Shown here piece by piece: positions 4,686 to 20,105 of a stretch of 56,618 bases of DNA (position 1 is its first letter; each line of letters begins with the position of its first letter). Location: positions 1-56,618 of IMG/VR virus record IMGVR_UViG_3300023174_000199; one strand, 5' to 3'. Both the position numbers and the translations under genes were made by a program. Origin of the DNA: a virus. Its lineage: Duplodnaviria > Caudoviricetes. Below the pieces are notes generated by a model. The model was not told the origin of the DNA. It worked only from the letters and a program-made list of their open reading frames with translations, and made no database searches.

Positions 4686-5566
4686 TTGTTATTGATTATT
4701 CTCAGACTATTATCTCCAACCTAATGGTGGAGATTGGTGGTAGGAAAGACATTGAACTTGATGTTAACTTGCTACGTCATATGGTGCTTAATGCTATTCG
4801 AGCGCATAAGCAAAAGTTTGGACGTGAGTATGGTGAGATCGTTATTGCATGTGATAGCCGTAAGTACTGGCGCAAGGCTCAGTTTCCTTACTACAAAGCT
4901 AACCGTAAGAAGTCAAGAGAAGATTCCGGCTTTAACTGGCCTCATATCTTTGATACGATTAACTTACTCAAAGAAGAGCTGCGTACGGTATTTCCGTATA
5001 AGGTAATCGAGGTGGAGGGGGCTGAGGCAGATGATATTATTGCCACGCTCGTCTTCTGGTCTAACAGTAATGATAAAGTAGTTACAGGTCTCTTAGAGGA
5101 ACCGAAACCTCTTTTGATTATTTCTGGTGATCATGACTTCATGCAGTTACAAAAGTATAAGCATGTTAAGCAGTACTCTCCTGTACAAAAGAAATTCGTT
5201 AAACCTGATATGCCTCCTCACCAGTATTTAATGGAGCATATTGTTAAGGGTGATAAGGGTGACGGAGTACCTAATATTCTTTCAGCTGATGACTCCATTG
5301 TTGCTGGTGAACGTCAACGACCTATTACATCTAAGAAACTATTAGAGTTTGCAGAGAATGGTTTCATTGCTTGTAAGACAGAAGAAGAACGTCGTAACTT
5401 TCATCGTAATAAATTGATGGTGGATCTCGACATGATACCTTCTGAGGTTCAAGAAGCTATTATAAATAACTTCGTGACACAACCAGTTAAAGATAAGAGC
5501 CAGCTACTTAATTATTTTATTGAACATAAGATGAAGCAGATGATGGAACATTTGGAGGAATTTTAA
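4682..5566 (+). CDS. rnh: T4-type RNase H (5'-3' exonuclease)
   Basis: YKANRK, EADDIIA, SGDHDFMQL and GDKGDGVPNILS motifs of the FEN-like family. Confidence 0.95.
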   Translation: MIVIDYSQTIISNLMVEIGGRKDIELDVNLLRHMVLNAIRAHKQKFGREYGEIVIACDSRKYWRKAQFPYYKANRKKSREDSGFNWPHIFDTINLLKEELRTVFPYKVIEVEGAEADDIIATLVFWSNSNDKVVTGLLEEPKPLLIISGDHDFMQLQKYKHVKQYSPVQKKFVKPDMPPHQYLMEHIVKGDKGDGVPNILSADDSIVAGERQRPITSKKLLEFAENGFIACKTEEERRNFHRNKLMVDLDMIPSEVQEAIINNFVTQPVKDKSQLLNYFIEHKMKQMMEHLEEF

Positions 5567-6030
5567 TGCAATTACTAATTTCAGAAGTACTTGATGAGTT
5601 TGAAAAAGCTAAATCAAAACAAGATAAAATCGCTGTACTTAAAAAATACGAAACGCCCGTTCTACGAGGCATCATGCGAATTAATTTCGACCCTAACGTA
5701 GCGTTCGATCTACCAGAGGGTGAGCCCCCGTATCGTAAAGATACTGATCGCCCGATCGATTATCAGCAAACAACGCTGACGCTTGAATATAGACGCTTCT
5801 ATATCTGGCATGACCCTAATGTTAAGATTCCTAAACTTAAAAAAGAAACTCTCTTTATTGAAATGTTAGAAGGCCTGCATGCATCAGAGGCCGAAGTAAT
5901 TATTCTTGCTAAGGATAAAAACTTATCTAAAAAGTATAAGTCTCTAAAAGAAGACATTGTACGTGAGGCATACCCTGTAACGTTACCACCTAAGGTAGAT
6001 AAGGTGAAAGCTGCATCCCCTTTAGTTTAA
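5566..6030 (+). CDS. Conserved T4-like phage protein (recalled as DUF6433-like), with a possible -1 frameshift extension to 6149
   Basis: LPEGEPPY and FIEMLEGLH...EAE motifs. Ends in C CCT TTA GTT TAA. Confidence 0.75.
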   Translation: MQLLISEVLDEFEKAKSKQDKIAVLKKYETPVLRGIMRINFDPNVAFDLPEGEPPYRKDTDRPIDYQQTTLTLEYRRFYIWHDPNVKIPKLKKETLFIEMLEGLHASEAEVIILAKDKNLSKKYKSLKEDIVREAYPVTLPPKVDKVKAASPLV

Positions 6031-6149
6031 AATCTCTTTGGCAGCTTTTCACGAGGAAAAAACCTGAGTGGGAAGTAACTGGTACGGCGCCTAGTCTGGA
6101 GCGCTTCTACAATGTTAAAGAGATTAAAATGGATAGACGTAACCTTTGA
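6018..6149 (+). other. Candidate -1 ribosomal frameshift signal and 41-codon extension
   Basis: In-phase C_CCT_TTA, 6-nt spacer, 13-bp stem 6031-6043/6113-6125, -1 frame open to TGA 6147-6149. Confidence 0.55.
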
Positions 6150-6174
6150 TTTTTTTATTGTTCTATATTATAAT
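6146..6174 (+). promoter_or_regulatory. Sigma70-type promoter
   Basis: TTGATT-N17-TATAAT. Confidence 0.7.
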
Positions 6175-6179
6175 TGATT

Positions 6180-6536
6180 ATGATTTATACTAATACTAAA
6201 CCTCTTGTTAAACCTAAGCAGAAGCCTAAAGCCGAGCGCGAGCAGTACGCTGCGTGGTGTGCGAAGCATGGTATTGATCCTACCGGTAAGAATAGGAAGA
6301 GAAAAGACTTTAAGGTAATTACTCTACCTGGTGTCGTGTCGAAACCGTATGTTCGTGAGACTAAGCAGTATCCTAGCTTAGACTCTGGTAACTACGGGGC
6401 GGTTACTACTGGAAAAGCTAAGCAGGTATATACGGGGGATAAAATGCTAGGTATTGCTGCTATGCATAAGTCTAACTTAGTACCTATTTTTACTGAAGAA
6501 AACGCGAAAGAAGTATCGCAAATGAGGCGCGGATGA
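6180..6536 (+). CDS. Conserved basic hypothetical protein
   Basis: C-terminal YTGDKMLGIAAMHKSNLVPIF motif common in T4-like phages. ATG 6180 lies just after the -10 box. Confidence 0.7.
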   Translation: MIYTNTKPLVKPKQKPKAEREQYAAWCAKHGIDPTGKNRKRKDFKVITLPGVVSKPYVRETKQYPSLDSGNYGAVTTGKAKQVYTGDKMLGIAAMHKSNLVPIFTEENAKEVSQMRRG

Positions 6537-7375
6537 AAATTGCTCTTGGTTCAGACCTGCATATCGAGTTTGGTCAGCTCGAAGTTACAAATGCACATGG
6601 TGCAGATGTATTAATTTTATCTGGTGATATTGTTACTGCTACTGATTTAAAAGGTTACTCTGAAGGCGACTCATACGGTAATGCAAAACGTTTTATGACG
6701 TTCTTCGAACAATGTTCAACCAGCTTTAAGCATGTACTTTACGTGATGGGTAATCATGAACATTATCACGGTGACTTTGCAACGTCAGCTAATATACTTC
6801 GCACTGTTCTAAAAGAGTTTCCTAATATCCGTTTAATGGATAAGGAGAGTATTACAATCGAAGACGTTATATTCATTGGTGGTACCCTCTGGACTGATAT
6901 GAATAAAGAAGACCCACATACCCTTTATTCCATTAAAGGTGCTATGAATGACTTTAGAATTATTCAGAACAGTTCAAGAAAAGTAACCTTTAAAGATGAC
7001 GGAGGTAAGTTCCACGAAAGAGAAGCTCGCTTCTGCCCGGAAGATACAGTTGAAGATCATAAAGCTATGCTTGCCTTTATTGACGAATCTACAAAAGATA
7101 AGACCGATAAGTTTGTTGTTATTGGTCATCACTCGCCCTGTAAGATGTCAACCCACCCTCGATATAAAGAGGAGGTAATGATGAACGGGGCATACAGTAG
7201 TGACTTGTCTGAGTTTATTCTCGACCGTCCTCAGATTAAACTTTGGACGCACGGTCATACCCATGACCCTTATGACTACATGATTGGTTCTACTCGTATT
7301 GTTTGTAACCCACGTGGCTACATTAACTACGAAGAGATAGCTGATAATTTTGATTTTAAACTACTAGAGGTATAA
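6533..7375 (+). CDS. Calcineurin-like metallophosphoesterase
   Basis: SDLH, SGDI, GNHE and HGHTH motifs. Confidence 0.92.
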   Translation: MKIALGSDLHIEFGQLEVTNAHGADVLILSGDIVTATDLKGYSEGDSYGNAKRFMTFFEQCSTSFKHVLYVMGNHEHYHGDFATSANILRTVLKEFPNIRLMDKESITIEDVIFIGGTLWTDMNKEDPHTLYSIKGAMNDFRIIQNSSRKVTFKDDGGKFHEREARFCPEDTVEDHKAMLAFIDESTKDKTDKFVVIGHHSPCKMSTHPRYKEEVMMNGAYSSDLSEFILDRPQIKLWTHGHTHDPYDYMIGSTRIVCNPRGYINYEEIADNFDFKLLEV

Positions 7376-7376
7376 T

Positions 7377-7652
7377 ATGAGTCTTCCTTCTGACCCCGCC
7401 GCACGTAAAGCTATTAAGAAGTGTATGGATGAGCTTTCAGCTTCCATGGCACGTACTGAAGGCGAGCGTGAATTCATTAAAGAGGCTATTAATAATATTT
7501 GCGAAGAATATGAAATGAGTAAGAAGACGTTTCGTAGACTTGCAAAGGTTTATCATAAGCAGAACTTCTCTCGCGAAGTTGCTGAACATGAAGAATTTGA
7601 AACCATGTACGAGCAACTAACTGGTGAAACAAGTCTAGGTAATATTACGTAA
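7377..7652 (+). CDS. dsbA: Double-stranded DNA-binding protein, T4 DsbA-like
   Basis: 91-aa helical protein with the FRRLAKVYHKQNF...FETMYE pattern, near rnh. Confidence 0.75.
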   Translation: MSLPSDPAARKAIKKCMDELSASMARTEGEREFIKEAINNICEEYEMSKKTFRRLAKVYHKQNFSREVAEHEEFETMYEQLTGETSLGNIT

Positions 7653-7846
7653 TGCATACAGTTTATAATCTAGAAATGCAGACGCGTGATAAAATGAACC
7701 GCCTCAAAAAGACATCTCATGTTGGGGTATTTAATACTTTAGAGGATGTTGAGATTGCAAAAATTAAAGTATTAGAAAGTAATCCAGGTACAACCTTTGA
7801 GGTATATTTTTGTGAACATATTTTATTTGAGCAACAACCCGGCTGA
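7652..7846 (+). CDS. Hypothetical protein
   Basis: Translationally coupled small ORF. Confidence 0.6.
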   Translation: MHTVYNLEMQTRDKMNRLKKTSHVGVFNTLEDVEIAKIKVLESNPGTTFEVYFCEHILFEQQPG

Positions 7847-7868
7847 ATGCGCTCAACAACTTGGTTTG

Positions 7869-7876
7869 TATAAATA
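7869..7876 (+). promoter_or_regulatory. T4-type late promoter
   Basis: TATAAATA in an intergenic position. Confidence 0.8.
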
Positions 7877-7881
7877 AAAAT

Positions 7882-8133
7882 ATGATCTATACTTTTTTAA
7901 ATACTGAAACACAGCAAGTCGAAGAACATTCAATGCGTATGTCTGAATACGATGTGTTCAAAGATAAAAATCCCCACCTAGAAAGATACCACGAACCCGG
8001 CAGAGGACCTGCAATGGGCGACTCAGTTCGTCTGGGTATACGTAGACCAGATACGGGTTTTCATGAGGTACTATCAAAAATAGCTAGCGCTAATTACAAG
8101 AGTAACCTTACTGATAAGTTGTCACGACGATGA
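7882..8133 (+). CDS. Conserved small T4-like late protein
   Basis: MIYTFLNTET...NPHLE...GFHEVLSKI; ATG at 7882. Confidence 0.7.
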   Translation: MIYTFLNTETQQVEEHSMRMSEYDVFKDKNPHLERYHEPGRGPAMGDSVRLGIRRPDTGFHEVLSKIASANYKSNLTDKLSRR

Positions 8134-8157
8134 TTACACACTAAGAGTTTTTTACCG

Positions 8158-8189
8158 GGACTGCAGGGAAACCTGTAGTCCTTTTTTTT
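8158..8189 (+). terminator. Rho-independent terminator
   Basis: GGACTGCAGG-GAAA-CCTGTAGTCC followed by T8. Confidence 0.85.
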
Positions 8190-8204
8190 GCAAGAGGAAA
8201 ACTA

Positions 8205-8984
8205 ATGGCTACTAATAAGAGAGCAGCGAAAGCTGTTACTATCCATACCGAAGAGTATAATCCACAGACCCAACCTAATGTAAAACCAATTAATAATACA
8301 CTAAGATTAAAATTAGATAATTTAAGAACATTTCAACCTCTAACCGACAATCAAAGATTATTTTACGAAGCATATAAGAGAGGTGATTACTTTGTTGCCT
8401 TACATGGGGTAGCAGGTACTGGTAAAACGTTCATTGCTGTATACAAAGCTCTCGAAGAAGTATTAGATAAAAATAACCCTTTTAATAAAATTATTATTGT
8501 TCGGTCAGCGGTACAGTCTAGGGAAATGGGTCATCTACCTGGCGACATCGATGAAAAGCTGGACATCTATCAACAACCTTATCGTCAAATTTGCCATACA
8601 TTATTTGATCGTAAAGACGCATACGATAGATTAGCCGAACAAGGACACATCGAATTTATTTCTACATCATTCATTAGGGGTATGTCTTTTGATGATGCAA
8701 TTATTATTGTAGATGAAATGCAGAATATGACGTTCGAAGAAATTGATACGGTTATGACTCGTGTTGGTTATAGATCAAAAATTATATGGTGTGGAGACTA
8801 TCGTCAAACAGATTTGAATAAAAGAAAGACAGATGTGTCAGGTATTTTAAAATTCTTTGATATTGCCCATCACATGGCTGCATTTACAAGAATCGAATTT
8901 GAAGTAGACGATATTGTACGTAGCTCTTTAGTAAAAGATTATATTCTTGCAAAATTAAAAGTAGAAGACTCAGCTGATAAATAA
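8205..8984 (+). CDS. phoH: PhoH-family ATPase
   Basis: GVAGTGKT Walker A, GHLPG, RGMSFD and DEMQN motifs. Confidence 0.95.
   Translation: MATNKRAAKAVTIHTEEYNPQTQPNVKPINNTLRLKLDNLRTFQPLTDNQRLFYEAYKRGDYFVALHGVAGTGKTFIAVYKALEEVLDKNNPFNKIIIVRSAVQSREMGHLPGDIDEKLDIYQQPYRQICHTLFDRKDAYDRLAEQGHIEFISTSFIRGMSFDDAIIIVDEMQNMTFEEIDTVMTRVGYRSKIIWCGDYRQTDLNKRKTDVSGILKFFDIAHHMAAFTRIEFEVDDIVRSSLVKDYILAKLKVEDSADK
8976..8983 (+). promoter_or_regulatory. Late promoter variant
   Basis: GATAAATA upstream of the cupin and lysin genes. Confidence 0.5.
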
Positions 8985-8987
8985 AGC

Positions 8988-9434
8988 ATGACACCAGATA
9001 TTAAGCTTATTGCTTGTAGCAATGTATATAGTAGATTAATGCATTTTAAGCATGCAGGGGATATTGAACATGGTCATCGCCATAGTTATAACCATGCAAC
9101 GCTTGTAAGTGCTGGTTCGGTGCAAGTAGATATTTTAGATGATATGGGTAATACAACTTCATCAAAAGCATTTCATGCGCCGACAATGATTTATATCAGT
9201 AAAGATGACTTTCATAAAATTACTGCATTAGAGGATAATACAGTTTGTGTTTGTATACATGCATTAAGAACAATCGATGAAGAGTTGATTGAGCCAGACT
9301 TTTTAGTTGACGCTATTACTAATGATAATAACAATATGAATATACCTGAGTTAGTCAAAACGAAAACAGATAAAACACTTCAAGGGTTTATTGTCGAAAG
9401 AAATAAACTTGTTGATGAAGGTTTAAAGCATTAA
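8988..9434 (+). CDS. Cupin-fold protein
   Basis: GHRHSYNH...L..GSV and H-x-I-T-A-L-E-D-N-T cupin motifs. Confidence 0.7.
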   Translation: MTPDIKLIACSNVYSRLMHFKHAGDIEHGHRHSYNHATLVSAGSVQVDILDDMGNTTSSKAFHAPTMIYISKDDFHKITALEDNTVCVCIHALRTIDEELIEPDFLVDAITNDNNNMNIPELVKTKTDKTLQGFIVERNKLVDEGLKH

Positions 9435-9444
9435 GGGGAAAAAA

Positions 9445-10080
9445 ATGGCAGATAGTTTTGAATTTGAATTTACTGTTGAACAAGTACGTGAACTTATACC
9501 AAAAGCAATCGGTGGTCCGGATGCTTGGTATGAAGCTCTTGCCGAAGCACTTCCGCAGTACGACATTAACACTGTAGAGAGAGTAGCAGCATTTATTGCT
9601 CAGTGTTCTCATGAATCAGGTGGCTTTTCAGTACTAGAAGAAAACCTTAACTACAAAGCTGCAACTTTAGGTAAATTATGGCCACAGAGGTTTCCTCCCG
9701 GTATTGCTGAACAGTATGCTGGTAAACCAGAAATGATTGCTAATAAGACCTATGGTGGTCGAATGGGTAATGGATCAGAAGAAACAGGTGAAGGTTATAA
9801 GTATCGCGGTAGAGGTCTTTTACAGTTAACCGGTAAAGATAATTATAAGGCTTGCTCGCAAACGTTATTCCAAGACAGTACGCTTTTAGAAGATCCAGAT
9901 CTATTACTGGATCCTTACTATGCTATTCACTCGGCGTGCTGGTTCTGGAACAAGAACAAATTGAATCAGTTTGCTGATGCCGGTGATTTAACAACACTAA
10001 CTAAGCGTATCAATGGTGGTACGATCGGCTTAGAAGACCGCATACACCATTACAATCACGCTGTTGAGGTTTTGGCGTAA
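9445..10080 (+). CDS. Glycoside hydrolase family 19 endolysin
   Basis: AQCSHESGG, YRGRGLLQLTGKDNY and TKRINGG motifs. Confidence 0.93.
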   Translation: MADSFEFEFTVEQVRELIPKAIGGPDAWYEALAEALPQYDINTVERVAAFIAQCSHESGGFSVLEENLNYKAATLGKLWPQRFPPGIAEQYAGKPEMIANKTYGGRMGNGSEETGEGYKYRGRGLLQLTGKDNYKACSQTLFQDSTLLEDPDLLLDPYYAIHSACWFWNKNKLNQFADAGDLTTLTKRINGGTIGLEDRIHHYNHAVEVLA

Positions 10081-10092
10081 AGACGCTATAAT
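10064..10092 (+). promoter_or_regulatory. Sigma70-type promoter
   Basis: TTGAGG-N17-TATAAT, 5 nt before ATG 10098. Confidence 0.5.
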
Positions 10093-10097
10093 ATATT

Positions 10098-10778
10098 ATG
10101 ACATTTAAACATATAAAACTTGACCGTGAAGTACCTAAACTAAAACAGTTAAACGAGAACGGGGTACGGCATTATGTTACCCCTGAAGGTAATAAGTACC
10201 CTTCTATTACAACTGTACTGTCTGAGTACAACCGGAAAGCTATTTTTGAATGGCGTACACGGGTCGGTAATGATGAAGCTAATCGGGTATCTGGTAAAGC
10301 TTCAACCCGGGGTACCAAGCTGCATAAAGCTTGTGAAGATTATATTAATAATTTAACACCAGATTTTAAGACACCGTTTGAGCGAGATCTATTTAAAAGA
10401 TTTCAACCTACATTACATCGCATTAATAATGTCTATGCTCAAGAGCTACGTATGTACTCTGATCATTTACGTATTGCTGGTACGGTAGATTGTGTTGGTG
10501 AATTTGATGGTAAGGTTTCTGTTATTGACTTTAAGACCTCAGCAAAGCAAAAAGATATTAGTTACATCGAAAATTATTTTATGCAATGCTCTGCCTACGC
10601 GATTATGTTCGAAGAGCAATTTGGTATTCCTGTTGCTCAAACTGTTGTTGCAATTGCAGTTGAAGATGACGAACCACAAGTGTTTATCGAGAAGAGAGAT
10701 ACCCACGTAAAGCGGTTACTTCACTTCCGGGATCTCTACGAAAGAAAGAGTGGCATTTCAGTGGCATTGACAGTATAA
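10098..10778 (+). CDS. PD-(D/E)XK exonuclease of T4-like phages
   Basis: YPSITTVL, RGTKLH, AGTVD...IDFKT and QxxAY motifs. Confidence 0.9.
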   Translation: MTFKHIKLDREVPKLKQLNENGVRHYVTPEGNKYPSITTVLSEYNRKAIFEWRTRVGNDEANRVSGKASTRGTKLHKACEDYINNLTPDFKTPFERDLFKRFQPTLHRINNVYAQELRMYSDHLRIAGTVDCVGEFDGKVSVIDFKTSAKQKDISYIENYFMQCSAYAIMFEEQFGIPVAQTVVAIAVEDDEPQVFIEKRDTHVKRLLHFRDLYERKSGISVALTV

Positions 10779-10800
10779 TCTTTATGTGAGGGGTTGAGAA

Positions 10801-11385
10801 ATGGGTTCGCTTTCTAACTTTAATGATGCGTGTGTATCAATTAATGAAATTAAAACTAAATACGATTTAAATGTATTTGTAGAGACAGGTTGCTTTCAAG
10901 GCAACACGTTGAGGTATACGACAGGTTATAACTTTGAACGAATGTACAGTTGCGATATAGACAAGGAAATGATCGATAGGTGTAGTGATATTTCACCTAA
11001 CATAGAATTGTTTCTAGGTACATCGGTAGAATTTTTAGAACAATTACTACCTCGACTAACAGCTGATCGCATTTTATTTTTTCTTGATGCGCATTTACCC
11101 GAGCATGATAAGAACAGCGGTACGGTATTATTAGATTCAGAGCATAACTTTCCATTAAGGGAAGAAATTGAAATTATAAATAAATACCGTAAAGATAAGA
11201 ACGACGTTATCATTTGCGATGATTTACGCATATACGAAGACGGTCCGTTTGAAGGTGGTAATTGGGATAAACGTAAAAATTATAAAGACCTTGATTTAAA
11301 TTTCTTAAGCTTATATAATTATAAGGTAGAGAAGTTTTACAGTCATGAAGGCTATATCTTCTTAACAAAAGATATTGCTGTATGA
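10801..11385 (+). CDS. Class I SAM-dependent methyltransferase-like protein
   Basis: FVETGCFQG, FFLDAH and IICDD motifs. Confidence 0.7.
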   Translation: MGSLSNFNDACVSINEIKTKYDLNVFVETGCFQGNTLRYTTGYNFERMYSCDIDKEMIDRCSDISPNIELFLGTSVEFLEQLLPRLTADRILFFLDAHLPEHDKNSGTVLLDSEHNFPLREEIEIINKYRKDKNDVIICDDLRIYEDGPFEGGNWDKRKNYKDLDLNFLSLYNYKVEKFYSHEGYIFLTKDIAV

Positions 11386-11658
11386 AGCAAAGAGAAAAGT
11401 GTTCTGGACGCGGGTGCGAATCCCGCCAGGTCCACCAGATGTACTGGGTTCATTACCCTCAGCGCGAAGCCTAGAGCGACTAGGGTACATCTGATGGGCC
11501 TGATATAGATTCGACAGGGCAAAGAGTAACAGAGTGGACAGCACATCAGAGCAGATGTTAAAACTAAACAAAAGTAAACGCAAACGACTCAAAGTTCGCA
11601 TTAGCAGCCTAAACACTGCTTAGGGTTTCGTAGGTTTCCTCGTAACAGAATAACCTAC
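11374..11658 (+). ncRNA. ssrA: Circularly permuted (two-piece) tmRNA
   Basis: The acceptor piece comes first: T-arm GCGGG-TGCGAAT-CCCGC, then CAGGTCC-A-CCA ending at 11437. A 58-nt intervening segment follows. The coding piece starts GGGCCTG at 11496 (G3.U70 Ala identity) with ATTCGAC; the tag frame 11580-11612 reads ANDSKFALAA*. Outer ends approximate. Confidence 0.93.
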
Positions 11659-11675
11659 ACTTATAATGGAAAAAA

Positions 11676-12305
11676 ATGCATAAAGAAGTTCTTTTTGACA
11701 AGCCAAGAATAGTTCTATACAATGATGTATTTTCGAAAGATGAATGCGCGGATTTGATTAAGAGTATTCCATCTGAACAATTTTTTGCGGCTGAGGGTTT
11801 TGACTTTGTAACAAAAAAAGGTATACCTACAGACTATAGATCTAACTCTTCATACATTGATAAGGGGTTTAAACTCAACCCCCTGCATCAGAAATTAACA
11901 GAGTTAATTGAGGGGGAGTTAATAGGTACCTACCCCTATATTGAATTACCTGTACAAGTACAGCGGTACGATGTGGGTCAGCAGTATAAGACTCATGTTG
12001 ATTTTTTTAATAGAGCAAATGAACCTAAAGTCTTTGATGTTGATAGAATTGCTTCTATTATTGTTTATTTAAATGATGATTTCGAAGGTGGGGAGACGCA
12101 TTTCACAACTCTAAATATTAAAGTAAAGCCTAAAGCAGGAATGGCATTGTTTTTTAAATACAACTATAATGATCCTATATATAATAGGAATACATTCCAT
12201 GCTGGTATACCAGTAATTAGTGGTACAAAATACATTGTAACAGCTTTCTTTCGAAGTGAACCATTAAGTTATAAATGGAATGCAATTGATATCCTTAGGG
12301 TATAG
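11676..12305 (+). CDS. 2OG-Fe(II) oxygenase, prolyl-4-hydroxylase-like
   Basis: HVD (HxD), YLNDDFEGGETHF, FHAG...GTKY motifs. Confidence 0.92.
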   Translation: MHKEVLFDKPRIVLYNDVFSKDECADLIKSIPSEQFFAAEGFDFVTKKGIPTDYRSNSSYIDKGFKLNPLHQKLTELIEGELIGTYPYIELPVQVQRYDVGQQYKTHVDFFNRANEPKVFDVDRIASIIVYLNDDFEGGETHFTTLNIKVKPKAGMALFFKYNYNDPIYNRNTFHAGIPVISGTKYIVTAFFRSEPLSYKWNAIDILRV

Positions 12306-12337
12306 AAGGTCAAGTGGCTAGACCTTAAATTAGCCAC
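12306..12337 (+). promoter_or_regulatory. H-type RNA pseudoknot in the leader of ORF 12367
   Basis: S1 AAGGTC/GACCTT and S2 GTGGCTA/TAGCCAC, interleaved, all Watson-Crick pairs. Confidence 0.6.
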
Positions 12338-12366
12338 ACAACACTCATACACACAAAGGAATTAAA

Positions 12367-12639: not shown

Positions 12640-12652
12640 TCTGATGGTGAGC

Positions 12653-12670
12653 GGGGGCTTCGGCCCCCTT
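12653..12670 (+). terminator. UUCG hairpin, probable terminator
   Basis: GGGGGC-TTCG-GCCCCC-TT, with a short U tract. Confidence 0.6.
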
Positions 12671-12685
12671 CAATAAGGAGAACTA

Positions 12686-13222: not shown

Positions 13223-13530
13223 TGGAAACACTTAATACAATAAAAGAAAAACTAATAGGTTACTTTGAAGGATTCTCAAAGACTACCGCAGACACTTTTG
13301 CCTGGCTAAGTATGCTGGTATTCATATGTGCAACTGTTCCATCTTTTCTTGCTGTAATGTCAGGGGTTACAGATAAGCTACCCCCACTTGATATTACGTG
13401 TCTGTTGTGGCTAGGACTGTTGCTTTATTTCCTAAGATCAGCTATACTAAAGGACATGCTGATGGTAGTGACTATCGGTATTGGTTTCGCAATTCAATCC
13501 ATTATGTTAGGTCTAATATTTTTTATATGA
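13222..13530 (+). CDS. Small three-TM membrane protein
   Basis: Hydrophobic 102-aa ORF coupled to the hydrolase gene. Confidence 0.7.
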   Translation: METLNTIKEKLIGYFEGFSKTTADTFAWLSMLVFICATVPSFLAVMSGVTDKLPPLDITCLLWLGLLLYFLRSAILKDMLMVVTIGIGFAIQSIMLGLIFFI

Positions 13531-13790
13531 ACGAACAACCAGTGCAGTTAACCGATGCGCTTGTTATTACTAAGCGCTTTCGGTCACCAAATGAGTTCAG
13601 TATCTACATCGATGAAATTGTAACCCGTACAAAAGCTGGTTACATGGAGGCAGTAATTGCATATTGCGATGAAAAAGATATTGAAATTGATAGTATTGGT
13701 CCTTTGATTAATCAAAAGCTTCGTGAGAAGATTCAAATGGAAGCCGAGATTGCAAATATGATTAAACCGATTGGACATTTGCCTGTATGA
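13527..13790 (+). CDS. 33: Late-promoter transcription coactivator gp33
   Basis: FSIYIDEIV...YMEAVIAYC...LREKIQMEA; directly upstream of gp59. True start is ATG 13527. Confidence 0.88.
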   Translation: MNEQPVQLTDALVITKRFRSPNEFSIYIDEIVTRTKAGYMEAVIAYCDEKDIEIDSIGPLINQKLREKIQMEAEIANMIKPIGHLPV

Positions 13791-14395
13791 TTATGGAACC
13801 ATTTGAAGTCTATCGCTACTACCTCGCATTGAGATTACATTTTACTACCGATCAGTATGATGTAATTGCGCAAGGTGGGAGGGTAAGAGCCTCAAAGCAA
13901 TCTTTTGCTAAACGTAAGGACTTATTAGCAATTAGAAAAGTAGCCGAAAGTTACTCTGATAAAGAGGTGGTTGATTTTCTAGTTGCTAATTTTGTATCAG
14001 GTGATCGTTGGGGTGGGTTATTTGATGTTGATTCTAAAGAGCGATACGCAAGTTGGAAGAAGCGTATGGAGTCCATGTACTACACATTCGATAAAGAACT
14101 TAATAATGTAATTACGTTTTGTGAAAAGAATAATATTACATTCTGGGAAACATTCCATTGCCAGAAAAATGAGCATCCATATATAATTAAGCTATATTTA
14201 AGAAATAGCATTTCTATAGAAACGTTAGTTATTTTAGAGAAGTTAACCGGTTACGTAACAGACCTGGATCAGAAATTGTGTAACGATTTAATCTGGCCTG
14301 ACGTATCGAGAACTATAAAGAAATACGACCCATTCGTAAATATTAAAAAAGAAAAATACGATGAATTACTCCGATCACGAGTTGGATATAAGTAA
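13787..14395 (+). CDS. 59: Helicase loader gp59
   Basis: YLALRLHFT...YD, F-x-KRKD, ISIETLVIL; synteny 33-59-32. Confidence 0.9.
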   Translation: MIMEPFEVYRYYLALRLHFTTDQYDVIAQGGRVRASKQSFAKRKDLLAIRKVAESYSDKEVVDFLVANFVSGDRWGGLFDVDSKERYASWKKRMESMYYTFDKELNNVITFCEKNNITFWETFHCQKNEHPYIIKLYLRNSISIETLVILEKLTGYVTDLDQKLCNDLIWPDVSRTIKKYDPFVNIKKEKYDELLRSRVGYK

Positions 14396-14576
14396 AGCAA
14401 GAATCATAGAGCTGGAGAAAAGCATATGTATCCTTCAGGAAAATGTTACGGCGTTATCAGAGCATTTAAAAGAAACACAAAGATTTTTAATTCGGTTAGC
14501 GCATAGTCAAGGTGAGATTGCAAAACGAGTTTCAGCCTGGCCATTCGTTGCAGTTGATACAAAAGGAGAAAAGTAA
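14361..14576 (+). CDS. Hypothetical coiled-coil protein
   Basis: 71-aa ORF in the operon. Confidence 0.6.
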   Translation: MNYSDHELDISKARIIELEKSICILQENVTALSEHLKETQRFLIRLAHSQGEIAKRVSAWPFVAVDTKGEK

Positions 14577-14695
14577 TGTTAGAGACAATTTTTTGGATTT
14601 TAATAGGTGCATTTATTGGTTGGCACTTCCCACAACCCCAATGGGCAGTTACACTTAAAGAAAAAGCTTTGGGGCTATTTAACAAAAGTAAGTAA
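14576..14695 (+). CDS. 39-aa single-TM protein
   Basis: MLETIFWILIGAFIGWHFPQPQWAVTLKEKALGLFNKSK*; AAGGAG SD. Below the ORF-track cutoff. Confidence 0.75.
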   Translation: MLETIFWILIGAFIGWHFPQPQWAVTLKEKALGLFNKSK

Positions 14696-14706
14696 GTTTT
14701 GCAGCA

Positions 14707-14898
14707 ATGAAAAATATGTCATCGGAGTGGGATAGTTACAAGAAGATCCGACGAGTCGAAAAAGGTACCAATAAAGTTGACAAGTACCGCAAAAGCATAT
14801 ATAATATGTTATCAGAAGAAGATTTAGAATCTTTCGATGACGAGTTAGATTCTGATACAGAAGAAAGTAAAGTGAATCGTAATGATAAACAATACTAA
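14707..14898 (+). CDS. Hypothetical protein (basic N-terminus, acidic C-terminus)
   Basis: 63-aa ORF before gp32. Confidence 0.6.
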   Translation: MKNMSSEWDSYKKIRRVEKGTNKVDKYRKSIYNMLSEEDLESFDDELDSDTEESKVNRNDKQY

Positions 14899-14931
14899 TA
14901 CATCGCATACAACGTTTATACGGAGAAAATT

Positions 14932-15825
14932 ATGGCATTAGACTTTTCAGCAATGAAGAAAAATCGCGGTACGTTTGACAACCTGATGAAGGAAGTCGAA
15001 AAGATCGCCACCCCTCAAACTCAAGAGAGTAACTCTAAAGATGACCGCTTCTGGCAACCAGAGGTAGATAAAGCCGGTAACGGTTACGCAGTCATCAGAT
15101 TCCTACCACCACCAAAAGGCGAAGATCTTCCTTGGGTTCGCGTTTGGAATCACGGCTTCCAAGGCCCAACTGGTAAGTGGTATATTGAGAATTCTCTCAC
15201 TACCCTTGGTAAGCAAGACCCTGTAACTGAACTTAATAACGAGTTGTGGAATGCAGGTACTGAAGCCAATAAAGAAATTGCACGTAAGCAAAAGCGTCGT
15301 CTTACTTACATTGCTAATATTATTGTGGTTAAGGATGCTGCGCATCCTGAGAATGAAGGTAAAGTATTCCTTTATAAGTTCGGTAAGAAAATCTTTGATA
15401 AGATCAAAGATGTAATGCAACCTCAGTACGAGGATGAAGAAGCAATTAATCCTTTCGACTTCTGGAAAGGTGCTAACTTCAAATTGAAGATTCGTAATCT
15501 AGAAGGATATCGTAACTACGATAAGTCCGAGTTTGATGCAATTTCAGTATTGTCAAACGATGACGATGAACTTGAAACGACTTGGAAGAAGCAATACTCT
15601 CTCCAGGAGTTCTTAGATCCCAAGCACTTTAAGTCTTATGAAGAACTTAAGGCTAAGCTTGAAATGGTTCTGTCAGGTACAGGAACGACTGCTCCTAGAG
15701 CGGAAGAGACTGCACTTGCTGAAGATCGTCCGCGTCCTGTCTCAAAACCAGCTCCTAAGGCCAGTGTTGAAGATAGCGCAGATGATTCCCTGTCGTACTT
15801 TGCCAAGTTGGCGAATGACGACTAA
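14932..15825 (+). CDS. 32: Single-stranded DNA-binding protein gp32
   Basis: DDRFW...DKAGNGYAVIRFLP, FGKKIFDKI, NYDKSEF, acidic tail ending SYFAKLANDD. Confidence 0.96.
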   Translation: MALDFSAMKKNRGTFDNLMKEVEKIATPQTQESNSKDDRFWQPEVDKAGNGYAVIRFLPPPKGEDLPWVRVWNHGFQGPTGKWYIENSLTTLGKQDPVTELNNELWNAGTEANKEIARKQKRRLTYIANIIVVKDAAHPENEGKVFLYKFGKKIFDKIKDVMQPQYEDEEAINPFDFWKGANFKLKIRNLEGYRNYDKSEFDAISVLSNDDDELETTWKKQYSLQEFLDPKHFKSYEELKAKLEMVLSGTGTTAPRAEETALAEDRPRPVSKPAPKASVEDSADDSLSYFAKLANDD

Positions 15826-15916
15826 TTAGGTAGTCAGAACCTAATCCAGGACACTCGTTACCTTTAGTAACTTAGGTCCTGGAACGGTGACGAGCTAATT
15901 AGGTTTTGTTTTTTTT
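15822..15916 (+). ncRNA. Candidate structured RNA element (pseudoknot within a switchable outer helix)
   Basis: CCAGGAC/GTCCTGG interleaved with CTCGTTACC/GGTGACGAG, enclosed by AACCTAAT/ATTAGGTT and followed by a T-run. Confidence 0.5.
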
Positions 15917-15942
15917 AACTTAATTTAATTTTCGGAGTTTAT

Positions 15943-16128
15943 ATGAAAAATATTATCGCTATTATCGCTTCTGCTTTCGCTTTGACTGCCTTTGCTGCTG
16001 AACCTGCTAAGACAACACCCGCTCCTGCTGCTCAAGCTGCCGCCTCCGCTGCTGCTCCTGCCGCTAAGAAGGTAGAGGCTAAGCCGGCTGCTAAGAAAGA
16101 TGAAAAGAAGCCAGAAGCAAAAAAGTAA
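15943..16128 (+). CDS. Small exported Ala/Lys/Pro-rich protein, with a possible -1 frameshift extension to 16211
   Basis: Sec signal peptide ending AFA-A; GGAG SD; ends GCA AAA AAG TAA. Confidence 0.8.
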   Translation: MKNIIAIIASAFALTAFAAEPAKTTPAPAAQAAASAAAPAAKKVEAKPAAKKDEKKPEAKK

Positions 16129-16211
16129 AGCGGCCTTGTAAAGCTGGACAGACTACGGCCGATGGTTGTAGAGTTGTTAAAAAGGCCGTAAAGAAAACAG
16201 CTAAGAAGTAA
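16119..16211 (+). other. Candidate -1 ribosomal frameshift signal and 28-codon extension
   Basis: In-phase A_AAA_AAG, then a stem-loop 16130-16189; the -1 frame reads VKRPCKAGQTTADGCRVVKKAVKKTAKK*. Confidence 0.6.
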
Positions 16212-16240
16212 AAGAATGGGGACCTAGGTCCCCATTTTTA
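16211..16240. terminator. Bidirectional Rho-independent terminator
   Basis: Perfect palindrome AATGGGGACCTAGGTCCCCATT with A-rich and T-rich flanks, between convergent genes. Confidence 0.88.
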
Positions 16241-18802
16241 TTAGAAGGCCGATACCCTGTCTTGGTATCGATCAAGAGCTGAACCACCTCTTTCATTCCT
16301 AGGTGTTGGTTTAACAGGTACGTAACTAGTATTATTATTTGTACTGCTATTGTTAGATACTATTGGTGTAACATTAGTACTACCGCGCGATGCTTCTCTG
16401 TTAAGATCAGCATTCTCTGTCGAGGCTTTAACAACCTCAGGGCCTGCAGTATTACCCGTTGTCTTAGGTTCAACCGCAGCTACTTGCTTTTGTTTTGCGT
16501 ATTGAGCTTCTACATCTGGAGAATACGTATTACCTGAAGCTTTAGACATCCCAATAACAGCCATTTGTTTATCAGAAAGCGGTTGATTTGGAACAACTCT
16601 CTCACCAGCAATCGTTGTATAACTTTCTGTTTTTGATATAGAAGCACCTGCTGCACCTGCCACGGCGTCTGTACTTTGACTAGCTGTTTTTGAAGCAGTT
16701 ACATCACCAACGGGGTTCTTTGCACCTGGCCCGCCAGATACTTTTTCTTCTTTCTTTTTATTTTGCTTATCGCTTATCTCTTTCATCTTCGCTTTATATT
16801 CAGGCGAATTTATTTTATTTGCTAGCTGTATGAATTCATTCGCCGCAGCATCCATGCCTGCTTTATCATCATTACTTTCTGCTTTACCAAATTTTTTCCA
16901 GGCTGCTTCAGCAGCTTCTACATCTTCCTTCTTACCCTGTAGTTCGTACCCATCCTCATAACCTGCAATTGTACTACCACCGATTTTTTCTTGTAATACC
17001 TTACTCTTTTTAAACTCAACTTTATCTTGTTTCGCAACCGCGGGTGCCCCACCCATTGCCGCGGCCGCAGCTGCACCAGGGGCTGCTTCTTCTTTCTTGC
17101 TTCCAAAGAAGCCCGAAACTGCACTACCTATACCACCCGCTTTATCTTTAAGGTAGTTAATACCTTCACCAGCTTTTTCACCAACGTATTTACCGGCACT
17201 CGAGCCTGCAAAGGCTCCTAAGGCGCCACCCGCTAAACCGCCAATACCTGCACCCACCGCAGTACCAACCGGGCCGCCAATAAACGTACCAATAGTACCA
17301 CCGAGCTTAGCACCTGCAAGACCACCAGCGATTGCGCCGGCTGCCATACCGGTACCTTCCCCAATTGCTCCGCTCTTTTCAACTGTTGCTGTATTACCTA
17401 TTTCTTTTCTAGCAGCTGCAGCTTCTTCTGGTTTCATTTCCCCGGAGTCAACTTTAGCCTGGACCTCGTCCATCTTTGCTTGCTTATTATCTTCGGCCTC
17501 TGTATACCCTTTATACGCAGTGTAGGCGCCCGCACCAACAGCAAGTACAGCACCACCAATCTTAGCCGCTTTACCGAGACTTGCCATTCTACTTGCAAGT
17601 TTACCACCTGCAGCTGCCTTACCGCCTGATGGTATTAAATCAGTTAAACCTAATCCGCCTCCACCGCCACCACCGCCGCCGCCCTCTTTAACTGCTTCAA
17701 TAAGTTCATCTAATTTTTCTACTACTCGTTTATTAGGGTCTTTATTTGGCTCATCAGCTGTTGCAGGTGTTAACGCAAGTCGTATACCTTTTAGTTCTTC
17801 GAGCTGCAGTTTTACAATAGAAAGATTTTGACCTATAAGATCGTTGGTCTCTTTAATTTCTTTTGATATAAGTTCACCCGACGTTTCAATATTATCAGAC
17901 TCTGGATTCACAGAAGCTGCTGTTATCTTTTCGTTAGGCGATTTATCAATCTCTGGTGTAGTTAATGCATCAGCTTTAGCTTGTTTATCAGCAGTAGGTG
18001 ATGCAGCAGTAACTCTTGGATCAAGAGCGTCAAATTCTTTATTTAACTTATCAAGTTCTTTTTGATCTTTTTTAAGCGGGCTAAACCCTTGAGAAGCTGG
18101 CACATCCATCTTCTCTTTTACTTTATTAATCTCGTCTTCTTTTGCTTTTAAAGCATCGTACTTATCTTTACCAGCATCAAGCGCACTCTTACCGCCTTTT
18201 TGAAACTGTGTGCCTTTTGCAGATGCTGCGTAACCTTTTGCAAACCGCTCACGTTCAGGTGTATACCCTGCCTCTGCACTAACTATATCTTTAGCAGTTC
18301 CTAATGCACCTTTAACTGAGTCCTTTACACTACCAAAAGCATTAGATAGGGTCTTTTTAGGGTTAGATGCAAAACCAGCAATACCTTTACCTATACTCTT
18401 CGCCATACCAACAGTACTCTTTAAGCCTTCTGTTAGTGTGTAGTCTTTAGGTAAGTCAGGTAGCTTACCCGTACTCCCAGACTTATTTGACTCATTATCC
18501 GATTTGCCGCTTGCACTATTACTTTTTGCAAAACTATCTTGTATATTTTTTAAAGTCTTATCAATATTTTTTAAATATTCTTCTGATTTTTTTAAATACT
18601 CTTCTGACTTATCTTTAACACCGTGACCCTCAATACCTGCAGCAGCACCTTCAACCTCAGGGTCCATTTTTGGTTGAACTTGGATTGCAGGGGTAGTCAG
18701 CTTACCGCTAGGAGTCAGCTTCTGTTTAACAACACTCTCAGCTTCGTTAAGCTTTTTTAAGTGCTTAACAATAGACTCAAATTTTTCTGACTGCTGTGCC
18801 AT
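16241..18802 (-). CDS. Baseplate hub / tail-length determinant (gp29-like tape measure)
   Basis: 853 aa, Ala/Gly/Lys-rich with GxxxG zipper segments, downstream of gp26/gp51. Assigned mainly by synteny and composition. Confidence 0.6.
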   Translation of the reverse strand: MAQQSEKFESIVKHLKKLNEAESVVKQKLTPSGKLTTPAIQVQPKMDPEVEGAAAGIEGHGVKDKSEEYLKKSEEYLKNIDKTLKNIQDSFAKSNSASGKSDNESNKSGSTGKLPDLPKDYTLTEGLKSTVGMAKSIGKGIAGFASNPKKTLSNAFGSVKDSVKGALGTAKDIVSAEAGYTPERERFAKGYAASAKGTQFQKGGKSALDAGKDKYDALKAKEDEINKVKEKMDVPASQGFSPLKKDQKELDKLNKEFDALDPRVTAASPTADKQAKADALTTPEIDKSPNEKITAASVNPESDNIETSGELISKEIKETNDLIGQNLSIVKLQLEELKGIRLALTPATADEPNKDPNKRVVEKLDELIEAVKEGGGGGGGGGGLGLTDLIPSGGKAAAGGKLASRMASLGKAAKIGGAVLAVGAGAYTAYKGYTEAEDNKQAKMDEVQAKVDSGEMKPEEAAAARKEIGNTATVEKSGAIGEGTGMAAGAIAGGLAGAKLGGTIGTFIGGPVGTAVGAGIGGLAGGALGAFAGSSAGKYVGEKAGEGINYLKDKAGGIGSAVSGFFGSKKEEAAPGAAAAAAMGGAPAVAKQDKVEFKKSKVLQEKIGGSTIAGYEDGYELQGKKEDVEAAEAAWKKFGKAESNDDKAGMDAAANEFIQLANKINSPEYKAKMKEISDKQNKKKEEKVSGGPGAKNPVGDVTASKTASQSTDAVAGAAGASISKTESYTTIAGERVVPNQPLSDKQMAVIGMSKASGNTYSPDVEAQYAKQKQVAAVEPKTTGNTAGPEVVKASTENADLNREASRGSTNVTPIVSNNSSTNNNTSYVPVKPTPRNERGGSALDRYQDRVSAF

Positions 18803-18803
18803 A

Positions 18804-19214
18804 TTATTGATCTAGGTTAGGTTTAACAATTGGTCTTCTTACAACCGGTGTTGGTGCTGGGGTAGAGTAATCACTAGTATTTTCCACGACAGGCGCGAAT
18901 GACGCAGCTGGGGTTGCACTGTAACTTGTTGGTGTATAATTAGATGCAGTACCAGCTACCTTCTCTTGTGTTCTACCCCATGCGGCAATACCGAGTACAG
19001 CGCCCATGGCAAGGTGAAATAAACCAGCCCCTTGTAAGGTAAGCGGATTCCATTGCGTAATTGGTTGCTTAGTAAGTACCTGTAACAAACTCCACAGAAC
19101 AGGAAATATTGCCATATCTAGCATACAGACGATCATATACATCCAACCCATAGCTGGACGCCATTTTTTCTGCATCCAATCTTCTTCTTTTTTTACTACT
19201 ACTTCGTCTGCCAT
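18804..19214 (-). CDS. Holin-like membrane protein (GTA-release 3TM holin-like)
   Basis: WRPAMGWMYM...FHLAMGAVLGIAAWGRTQEK motif. Confidence 0.65.
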   Translation of the reverse strand: MADEVVVKKEEDWMQKKWRPAMGWMYMIVCMLDMAIFPVLWSLLQVLTKQPITQWNPLTLQGAGLFHLAMGAVLGIAAWGRTQEKVAGTASNYTPTSYSATPAASFAPVVENTSDYSTPAPTPVVRRPIVKPNLDQ

Positions 19215-19215
19215 T

Positions 19216-19359
19216 TTACATGTTCCTTGCGTTTTGTTTAATTATCTGTAGCTTATCATTCTCGTGCCTAATATAATCTATCAATAATGAAACGTAAATC
19301 TCCCTCTCCCAAGGCAACATATTTTCAATCTCCGTTAAGCTGTACTTATGATGCTGCAT
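19216..19359 (-). CDS. 51: Small gp51-like baseplate hub assembly protein; frame open upstream to 19422
   Basis: MQHHKYSLTEIENMLPWEREIYVSLL matches the short cyanophage-type gp51. Not in the ORF track. Confidence 0.85.
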   Translation of the reverse strand: MQHHKYSLTEIENMLPWEREIYVSLLIDYIRHENDKLQIIKQNARNM

Positions 19360-19409
19360 TAACGAAAAGTTTAATGTATAAAAGTTAGCTAACGAATCTT
19401 GCGAGAGGG

Positions 19410-20105
19410 TTATACGAAAAAATTCTGTAAACCTTCTAGCCTTGATACGTTATGTTTCTTGCAGTCGGGGCAATCTGATTCTATTACCTGTACGATTTTA
19501 GGTGCGGTAACAAAAAACTGTTCTAACTTATCAAATTGAGATTTAGTTAGGGAGTACAGAAAGGTTTCCATTTCTTGTTTAGTCTGATCTCTTGCTTCCC
19601 AATACTCATCACCTCTGTAGATACCTTTAACGTTGCTAATAATCATATCAATCACTTTATCGTTATCGTCAGATGCAAATATACCTAGAACTTCATCAAT
19701 AGTTGGATACTGCATTTCAATACCCAGATCATCAGTAATTAAAATCTTATTTGTATGACCATCGCCTTTTTCAATTTTAAGGTCATCGATATTAAACTTA
19801 GCATCAATCTTGGTACCGCACTCACAATTAATAATGACATCAACCATCTCACCAATTGATTTAGCTCGAAGATTCATAAAAATGTATTCAACATCGATAT
19901 ACGGAATCTTGGCAACGTTTAGTTTTTCAAACGTACACACATTAACAAGTTCTCTAATAATTCTTGCTACTTCATCGTTCTCCGCATCTGCCATTGTTAA
20001 AAGAATTTTATGCTCTTTAACAAGGAAGGGTCTAAATTTAATCTTACTACCGGTAGAGGGTAATGTCAATTCAAAGGTTGGGGTTTCAAGTACTGGTAAA
20101 GCCAT
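19410..20105 (-). CDS. 26: Baseplate hub subunit/chaperone gp26
   Basis: MALP...FRPFLVKE, LRAKSIGE, C-terminal CPDC...LEGLQNFF. Confidence 0.9.
   Translation of the reverse strand: MALPVLETPTFELTLPSTGSKIKFRPFLVKEHKILLTMADAENDEVARIIRELVNVCTFEKLNVAKIPYIDVEYIFMNLRAKSIGEMVDVIINCECGTKIDAKFNIDDLKIEKGDGHTNKILITDDLGIEMQYPTIDEVLGIFASDDNDKVIDMIISNVKGIYRGDEYWEARDQTKQEMETFLYSLTKSQFDKLEQFFVTAPKIVQVIESDCPDCKKHNVSRLEGLQNFFV

Follow-up and report, generated by a model that had tools for sequence, protein, structure and literature searches.

Introduction

To our knowledge, few programmed frameshifts have been established in phages and bacteria beyond those of tail chaperones, capsid extensions and insertion sequences. 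In the dnaX layout the -1 frame stops almost at once, and frameshifting removes C-terminal domains from the product. A tail assembly chaperone frameshift in the gp26/gp51 pair of T4-like phages was reportedly described by Vladimirov, Gautam and Davidson in 2022. Here we analysed a stretch of 56,618 nucleotides (nt) of viral DNA (Duplodnaviria; Caudoviricetes; IMG/VR record IMGVR_UViG_3300023174_000199), hereafter the window, in which three genes carry an in-phase -1 slippery heptamer close to their stop codon: C_CCT_TTA in a DUF6433 gene (S1), A_AAA_AAG in the gene of a small secreted protein (S2) and T_TTT_TTC in the gp26 gene (S3). Comparison with related sequences indicates that the window probably holds three independent, conserved programmed -1 ribosomal frameshift cassettes; the ribosomal origin of the slippage, its efficiency and the functions of the extensions are what we infer beyond this. 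S3 is the tail-assembly-chaperone frameshift of T4-like phages and is of a known kind. S1 and S2 also belong to the known kind of -1 frameshifting and, as far as our searches show, are new and previously undescribed cases of it.

Results

Three gene ends with in-phase slippery heptamers

The window is about one third of the genome of a freshwater T4-like myovirus. The IMG/VR record is linear (56.6 kb; completeness estimate 35%), has a GC content of 40% and is about 97% coding under the standard code. It contains a T4-like/Kyanoviridae gene set, including RNase H, PhoH, endolysin, gp32, tail tube, gp26, a tape-measure-like gene and a transfer-messenger RNA (tmRNA), and near-identical DNA is present in lake and freshwater metagenome runs. 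The three heptamers, read from the sequence, all have X_XXY_YYZ phasing and are separated from a stop by no more than one codon. With the two slip codons included, the -1 frames comprise 43 (S1), 30 (S2) and 68 (S3) codons; without them the lengths are 41, 28 and 66, in agreement with an earlier sequence-only reading of the window. The frames end at 6146 before the upstream region of the next gene (S1), at 16208 before a terminator-like hairpin (S2) and at 19219 at the ATG of the next gene (S3), as that reading also had it. Its central proposal, C-terminal -1 frameshifting at three genes, gained support from the relatives, since heptamer, phase and -1-frame coding signal are all kept in diverged sequences.

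Heptamers at gene ends are more frequent in the window than expected by chance. The 66 open reading frames (ORFs), called by our own greedy rule, comprise 18,046 codon positions and contain 82 in-phase heptamers (0.0045 per codon). Four heptamers were observed 0-1 codons from a stop versus approximately 0.60 expected (Poisson P(≥4) = 0.0034, P(≥3) = 0.023); gene-end heptamers in the two other phases number 1 and 0. An open -1 frame after the stop is common in the window because the next gene often lies in that frame. Frame openness was therefore dropped as evidence, and the weight rests on the comparative tests. The fourth gene-end heptamer, T_TTA_AAG (9422-9428, plus strand), is likewise in phase, with one codon between it and the stop of ORF 8988-9434, and opens a 51-codon -1 frame. 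This site was rejected. The only close relative with the gene (L348, 90% identical) has T_CTA_AAG, L347 is without the gene, and the matches of the -1 'extension' merely track the conserved endolysin DNA that it overlaps. The site is a chance occurrence, which demonstrates that the comparative test is able to fail and cautions that one of four equally good-looking sites in the window arose by chance. The description of the recoding as phage-wide or routine was not borne out, with only 3 of approximately 66 ORFs affected and the look-alike site at 9422 not conserved. The phage uses the standard genetic code, and genome-wide recoding is excluded as a label.

S3 is a tail-assembly-chaperone frameshift

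The zero-frame gene of S3 (19410..20105, minus strand) encodes a gp26-like T4_baseplate protein of 231 residues (PF12322, 3.8e-58; phrog_150, 9.6e-60), corresponding to the short chaperone form. The heptamer T_TTT_TTC (19416..19422, minus strand) lies in phase, a single codon short of the TAA at 19412-19410, and the -1 extension of 68 codons (19219..19422, minus strand; stop at 19218-19216) is gp51-like. From residue 2 onwards, the extension matches phrog_634, the 'baseplate hub assembly catalyst' gp51 (1.8e-26). It also matches positions 231-276 of 282 in phrog_150, which are the C-terminal 46 positions of this longer 'baseplate hub' profile. An ORF of 47 residues with an internal ATG (19359-19216, minus strand) lies inside the extension, and such ORFs are annotated as gp51 in public records. 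In the accessible part of Leiman et al. (2010), the list of hub assembly chaperones of T4 includes gp26 and gp51, and gp51 is stated to be absent from the particle. The passage of a later paper (PMC10885494) that cites the work on this frameshift states that some T4-like phages have a short gene and a fused long gene in place of frameshifting, and poly-T slippery sequences in the chaperone genes of these phages are mentioned in the accessible text of a paper citing Vladimirov et al. (2022).

For comparison, 80 viral contigs with gp26 were fetched, of which three run off the contig end and 77 were scored. T_TTT_TTY (T_TTT_TTC or T_TTT_TTT) is present in phase one codon before the stop in all 77, at gp26 identities of 32-88%. 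The -1 frame is open for 59-70 codons in 71 contigs and reaches the contig end in the other six. The same arrangement was found in all four isolates examined (Melnitz-1, S-CAM4, P-HM1 and Mosig), in which the peptide from the heptamer to the annotated gp51 start is conserved as protein. Four relatives (L075-L078) are without the methionine that is used elsewhere as the gp51 start. In a blastn comparison with 86 phage records, the part from the heptamer to the extension was the only alignable part of the S3 gene. A Shine-Dalgarno (SD)-like AGAAGG (19432..19437, minus strand), a candidate stimulator, ends 9 nt before the heptamer; 53 of 56 unique relatives have such an element at a distance of 9-10 nt, and it overlaps conserved Glu-Gly codons. 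The slip is annotated in none of the five public records examined, the extension being left unannotated or given as a separate short ORF. In the S-CAM4 records (L003 and L431; GenBank and RefSeq), approximately 180 nt after the gp26 stop encode the gp51-like extension and carry no annotated feature.

The order of genes on the minus strand is tail tube (20125..20844; phrog_3629, 5.8e-32; phrog_45, 1.4e-31), gp26, extension, a gene for a holin-like protein with three transmembrane (3-TM) segments and an 853-residue tape-measure-like gene. S3 does not fall outside the known class: it sits where the gp26/gp51 tail assembly chaperone is encoded, with the tail tube gene on one side and the tape-measure gene on the other. 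The tape-measure-like gene (16241..18802, minus strand) has only a weak phrog_167 match (0.0029), so that its assignment is inferred from position and size. The 136-residue 3-TM gene (18804..19214, minus strand) matches phrog_3427 (2.9e-8) and, just below the cut-off of 24.8 bits, PF11351 (24.3 bits, 4.8e-5). This is a weak match to the 3-TM holins of gene transfer agents, in an unusual location for a holin-like gene.

S1 would add a conserved tail to the DUF6433 protein

The S1 gene (5566..6030, plus strand) encodes a DUF6433 protein of 154 residues (PF20025, 6.8e-33; phrog_461). The heptamer C_CCT_TTA (6018..6024, plus strand) is in phase one codon before the TAA at 6028-6030, and the -1 extension runs for 43 codons (6018..6146, plus strand; stop at 6147-6149). 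A SD-like AAGGTG (6001..6006, plus strand) ends 11 nt before the heptamer, with 10 nt following its GGTG core, and may act as an upstream stimulator. Directly upstream lies an RNase H/5'-3' exonuclease gene (4682..5566, plus strand; Pfam 5_3_exonuc_N, 1.2e-15, and RNaseH_C, 4.9e-13; phrog_107, 1.1e-52) whose stop overlaps the ATG of the S1 gene. C_CCT_TTA is found in the same phase in L198, L219 and L199, the close relatives being 97-99% identical and L199 59% identical in DUF6433. The extension of L199, 44 codons long, is 47% identical in amino acids to that of the window with many third-position changes, and contains no ATG, GTG or TTG.

A metagenome scan with the DUF6433 alignment gave 80 loci at 51-68% identity, and 79 remained after removal of one that runs off the contig end. 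An in-phase heptamer followed by a homologous -1 extension, scored when the -1 frame stays open at least 20 codons beyond the stop, is present in 68 of the 79 loci. Another six have the extension without a canonical heptamer, five of them ending in GTA_AAG_TAATG, and five have no extension. The heptamers in the 68 loci are CCCTTTA (26), AAAAAAG (21), AAAAAAA (16), CCCTTTG (3) and others (2). They form two classes: class A (29 loci) has C_CCT_TTR one codon before the stop and class B (37 loci) has A_AAA_AAR 7-11 codons before the stop. Class A and class B extensions are homologous: both begin with an amphipathic segment, contain a conserved Trp and have a Pro-rich motif with an aromatic-acidic one behind it. 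The mean pairwise proportions of nonsynonymous and synonymous differences (pN/pS) in the extension are 0.33/0.57 in class A (32 unique sequences) and 0.33/0.585 in class B (31 unique sequences, a set that wrongly took in one class A locus, L270).

The two classes carry different candidate stimulators. Most of the 31 unique class A sequences carry an AAGG-type element that stops 9-10 nt short of the heptamer, and the residues that it encodes are variable; in class B the spacing between the end of a SD-like element and the heptamer is 10 nt in 10 of 34 sequences and different in the remainder. Class B further has a 9-base-pair stem 6-9 nt downstream, which is paired in 88.8% of 249 cells with both-side changes at four pairs, although this stem was named by us from the same sequences and the figure leans towards itself. 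The observed values were reached by 0-3 of 500 shuffles, and controls slid along the sequence were paired in 25-62%.

In five loci (L237, L243, L252, L254 and L282), the ATG of the extension, within TAATG, directly follows an in-phase A_AAG tetramer; there the extension module may be a free protein of 45-50 residues, a fusion or both. The extension is missing from marine cyanophage isolates, Melnitz and Mosig, and searches of cultured phages gave no matches by blastn with S1 or by tblastn with either extension class. Marine cyanophages have another gene behind DUF6433, which encodes a different protein in the -1 frame and has its own ATG. At the DUF6433 end of Prochlorococcus phage P-HM1 (L302/L430), a G_GGA_AAC stands in phase two codons before the stop, the next annotated gene runs on in the -1 frame and an ATG lies just upstream of the heptamer; this G_GGA_AAC is probably incidental because S-CAM4 and ACG-2014d are without a heptamer there.

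The DUF6433 protein models as a ligase-type DNA-binding domain

An AlphaFold (AF2) model of DUF6433 built from 46 sequences is all-helical, with a predicted local distance difference test score of 86.5. The best Foldseek match is the DNA-binding domain (DBD) of T4 DNA ligase (5wfy/6dt1; E 1.9e-3, template modelling score 0.61/0.70), together with other ligase DBDs. In the VIA alignment, the predicted model superposes on the T4 ligase DBD with a Z of 14.6 over 130 of 132 residues at a root-mean-square deviation of 3.0-3.5; further Z values are 13.9 for the Prochlorococcus marinus ligase (6ras) and 11.0 for a Rhizobium phage ligase, and for helical domains a Z of about 13 can arise from common arrangements. 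All 48 entries among the matches listed in this alignment are DNA ligases. At the sequence level, a profile of the 46 DUF6433 sequences had no match among PDB sequences at E values up to 10, and Pfam gives DUF6433 alone.

DUF6433 thus models as a stand-alone fold like the DBD of DNA ligases. The protein of 154 residues has the DBD-like domain only, lacking the nucleotidyltransferase and OB-fold domains, and is therefore not a ligase. The modelled fold and the position behind RNase H suggest a nick- or flap-associated DNA-binding protein, to which the S1 extension would add a partner-binding tail or module. A complex prediction of the DUF6433 domain with the extension scored 0.01, which is not evidence either way. 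A sliding clamp was not found in the window, but the control genomes gave no match either. DUF6433 occurs in 475 phage records and is 'hypothetical' in all 40 among the matches listed.

S2 would join a Cys-loop module to a small exported protein

The zero-frame ORF of S2 (15943..16128, plus strand) encodes 61 residues with a signal-peptide-like N-terminus, judged from the sequence, and an Ala/Pro/Lys-rich linker. The heptamer A_AAA_AAG (16119..16125, plus strand) is directly followed by the zero-frame TAA (16126-16128). The -1 extension of 30 codons (16119..16208, plus strand; stop at 16209-16211) contains a Cys-loop module, PCKxGQTxADGC, and a basic tail, and is free of ATG, GTG and TTG. A stem-loop starting 4 nt after the heptamer (16130..16189, plus strand) is a candidate stimulator: the 86 nt downstream fold at -24.2 kcal/mol (z -3.1), and none of 200 shuffles was as good. 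The upstream neighbour (14932..15825, plus strand) is the gene for the ssDNA-binding protein gp32 (PF08804, 6.1e-47; phrog_224, 9.3e-117).

Of 36 unique relatives, 30 encode the Cys-loop module in frame with a preceding signal peptide, and six have it in the -1 frame. All six unique shifted alleles share the identical 12-mer GCA_AAA_AAG_TAA. They represent three diverged sub-lineages, with first ORFs 42-44% identical to that of the window. At the junction, the slip would restore the basic residues found ahead of the Cys loop in relatives of the in-frame type. Between the window and L127, six synonymous and two nonsynonymous changes were counted by eye. An outer stem begins 4-7 nt after the heptamer in all six shifted alleles, and the in-frame alleles have a short local hairpin alone. 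The mean minimum free energy is -25.0 in shifted (n = 6) versus -18.3 in in-frame alleles (n = 29; Mann-Whitney U test, P = 0.0016, uncorrected for phylogeny). The gp32 tree shows the two allele types intermingled, and its supported branches force at least three changes.

The protein matched no Pfam or PHROG family, and its atlas model is disordered. No matches were found in cultured phages by blastn with S2 or by tblastn with an in-frame homologue. Among loci L118-L134, phages with near-identical gp32 have very different S2 alleles, with either a short linker and a long tail or a long linker and the frameshift; the S2 gene thus behaves as an exchangeable cassette.

Other features of the window

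An Rfam scan of the window matched only the tmRNA. This gene (11331-11703, plus strand) scores 110.7 bits with the betaproteobacterial model and 119.9 bits with the permuted tmRNA model, and ARAGORN gives a tag peptide. In three other metagenome runs the contig depth is far greater over this stretch than next to it, suggesting that abundant other organisms share similar sequence. A link between the frameshift sites and the phage tmRNA is not supported. Within the tape-measure-like gene, the stretch 17256-17749 (minus strand) has a summed contig depth of approximately 1,300-1,900 versus 1-10 in neighbouring bins, in two unrelated metagenome runs, and is common to something very abundant or is repetitive.

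Discussion

Alternative explanations

The -1 frames could be separate small genes, with their own starts or translated by termination-reinitiation, in which case the heptamers would be incidental and no fusions would be made. Public records do annotate a separate gp51 of 44-53 residues from an internal ATG, for which the window has the ATG at 19359; five of the 79 S1 relatives, ending in GTA_AAG_TAATG, give the extension an overlapping ATG of its own; and the different -1-frame protein behind DUF6433 in marine cyanophages also starts at its own ATG. However, the conserved peptide begins at the heptamer, upstream of any start codon, as does the phrog_634 match from residue 2 of the S3 extension. 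Start codons are absent where this explanation needs them, both as the internal methionine in L075-L078 and as ATG, GTG or TTG in the S1 extension of L199 and the S2 extension of the window. The S2 module, in frame with the signal peptide in 30 relatives, is predicted to need that peptide for export. Incidental sequence would not explain a heptamer and phase that are invariant in 77 of 77 loci at S3 and present in 68 of 79 at S1, and we regard separate genes as unlikely. The fusions could also be real and be made by RNA polymerase slipping on A or T runs (transcriptional realignment), a process established in gene expression according to the accessible text of Atkins et al. (2016). S2 (A6), S3 (T6-T7) and S1 class B (A6-A7) do lie on homopolymer runs, but S1 class A (CCCTTTR, 29 loci and the window) has no run above 3-4 bases. 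Productive transcriptional slippage typically uses runs of about 9 bases or more, longer than any found here. The strict X_XXY_YYZ phase is that of ribosomes, and some cassettes carry an element expected to act on them, either a SD-like sequence 9-10 nt upstream or a hairpin 4-9 nt downstream. A single RNA contig covers the S2 run indel-free, although it extends only 10 nt beyond the heptamer. On this evidence, a transcriptional origin of the fusions appears improbable, and programmed ribosomal slippage remains the preferred reading.

Two further explanations concern the DNA itself. At S2, the shifted alleles could be damaged copies of an in-frame gene that lost one base in the run, with compensatory slippage on A_AAA_AAG restoring a little product; frameshifting that compensates for an indel is among the recognised classes (Atkins et al., 2016, in the accessible text). 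That 30 of 36 relatives are in frame and that the shifted alleles are scattered on the gp32 tree would fit such damage. It does not fit that the 12-mer, the adjacent stop and the outer stem have been kept in three sub-lineages with first ORFs only 42-44% identical, nor that the in-frame relatives examined show no A7 run at the equivalent place. The excess of synonymous over nonsynonymous changes between the window and L127 points to purifying selection on the extension, and the distinct long linker marks the shifted alleles as a separate allele type, not as point mutants of neighbouring in-frame alleles. Damage is thus a poor candidate for the origin of the shifted S2 alleles. Sequencing or assembly indels in genes that are really single in-frame ORFs have to be considered as well, given short homopolymers at all three sites in a window that is a metagenome assembly. 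The same frame layout recurs, however, in 77 (S3), 68 (S1) and five further (S2) independently assembled contigs, which come from many samples, at 32-88% identity, and at S3 in four isolate genomes. We further checked Logan contigs, assembled from runs of other studies, for indels as listed. Contig X2 covers 5400-6159 and 19138-20200 without a gap, as does contig X7 for 19073-19889. Over 15447-16436, X7 has gaps at 15909 and 16234 only, outside the S2 heptamer and extension. Contigs of independent runs thus cross each of the sites without an indel, and an assembly artefact is extremely improbable.

Several observations weigh against three ribosomal frameshift cassettes and temper our confidence in them. 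RNAalifold found no consensus structure for S3 or for S1 class B. The sequence-only reading had noted long stems downstream of two of the heptamers; the stem at S2 stood up to shuffling, but folds at S1 (z -0.6) and S3 (z -0.4) in the window are no better than shuffles. The SD-like elements at S1 and S3 overlap conserved codons. Shifting on the U_UUA tetramer in E. coli exceeds background by no more than 1.8- to 3.6-fold (Sharma et al., 2014, in the accessible text), so that C_CCU_UUA may be a weak site. The own ATG of the extension in five S1 relatives, which overlaps the stop, implies that the module can work unfused; among longer proteins no in-frame fusion of DUF6433 and the extension was found, which is weak evidence. 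Most S3 relatives have an internal ATG, and gp51 stands as a separate gene in public records. The shifted S2 alleles are a minority scattered on the gp32 tree, and their stem comparison is uncorrected for phylogeny. The artefact check used contigs and not raw reads, so low-level length variation in the A6/T6 runs is possible, and the RNA contig over the S2 run is a single one with a reach of 10 nt past the heptamer.

A proposed mechanism and its meaning

Programmed -1 frameshifting would give each of the three genes a short zero-frame product and a longer, C-terminally extended one in some fixed ratio. At S3, a slip on U_UUU_UUC at the end of gp26 would let the ribosome read the gp51-like frame, with the long chaperone form as the product. 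If the pair works like gpG/gpGT of lambda, the part common to both forms would bind the tape-measure protein, and the extension would bring in tail tube subunits. At S1, a slip on C_CCU_UUA would add a tail of approximately 40 residues with the conserved amphipathic start and the Trp and Pro-rich motifs, so that tail-less and tailed isoforms of a replication or repair DNA-binding protein would coexist, comparable to the C-terminal variants of dnaX. At S2, a slip on A_AAA_AAG, helped by the adjacent stop and the stem-loop 4 nt downstream, would join the disulfide-loop module and the basic tail to the small exported Ala/Pro/Lys-rich protein.

A further-reaching proposal is that in this freshwater T4-like lineage dnaX-style frameshifting sets the ratio of tailed to tail-less ligase-DBD-like protein, with lineage-level selection for C-terminal isoforms. 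We put it forward tentatively and think it possible rather than probable. If true, it would add a new recoding-controlled step to lagging-strand processing in phages; nick binding might, for instance, either be accompanied by the recruitment of host ligase, the clamp or another partner or occur alone. It would also mean at least three programmed frameshifts in a third of the genome, possibly tied to host translation features or to the phage tmRNA.

S1 and S2 were not described, and DUF6433 was not named, in the literature searched, which misses most subscription journals. For these two families without a literature, DUF6433 and the small exported Cys-loop protein, the comparative signatures are as strong as those of the textbook chaperone case. 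The route to the extension varies in evolution, through two heptamer classes, a stop-start overlap and in-frame alleles, and the loci form a natural series for testing the determinants of frameshift efficiency. The structural model assigns a fold to DUF6433, a core gene of cyanophage-like myoviruses. Current phage annotation misses frameshift products of this type.

Comparison with known systems

The DUF6433 model superposes on the whole DBD of ATP-dependent ligases (5wfy/6dt1, 6ras), and the protein differs from these enzymes in having neither a nucleotidyltransferase nor an OB domain. As for the frameshift sites, T7 gene 10A/10B and orfA-orfB of the IS3 family likewise use a -1 slip near the end of an ORF to make a C-terminally extended or fused product, at a U-rich or A_AAA_AAG heptamer with a zero-frame stop nearby. 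According to the accessible part of Sharma et al. (2014), no tetramers shift more readily in E. coli than A_AA.G and U_UU.C. The gene families are different, those of S1 and S2 encoding a ligase-DBD-like protein and a small exported protein, and database searches found no relation of the frameshift genes of the window to capsid or transposase genes.

S3 resembles lambda gpG/gpGT and T4-like gp26/gp51 in its position between tail tube and tape-measure genes and in its gp26- and gp51-family parts. Here a 3-TM gene separates the extension from the tape-measure-like gene, in contrast to gp26/gp51 systems. Unlike the T4-like phages with a short gene and a fused long gene (PMC10885494, in its citing passage), the window and its Kyanoviridae-like relatives have kept the -1 arrangement.

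S1 and S2 come closest to E. coli dnaX, the tau/gamma gene. Its protein is unrelated to that of S1, and its layout is different in that at S1 the zero frame stops and the -1 frame adds approximately 40-55 residues; the site in the window itself, C_CCT_TTA, also has no significant hairpin. Class B S1 shares A_AAA_AAR, a stem-loop 6-9 nt downstream and, in 10 of 34 sequences, a SD-like element 10 nt upstream. S2 has A_AAA_AAG and a stem 4 nt downstream in common with dnaX. The outcome predicted for S1 is likewise that of dnaX, namely a DNA-replication-associated protein made as two isoforms with different C-terminal parts.

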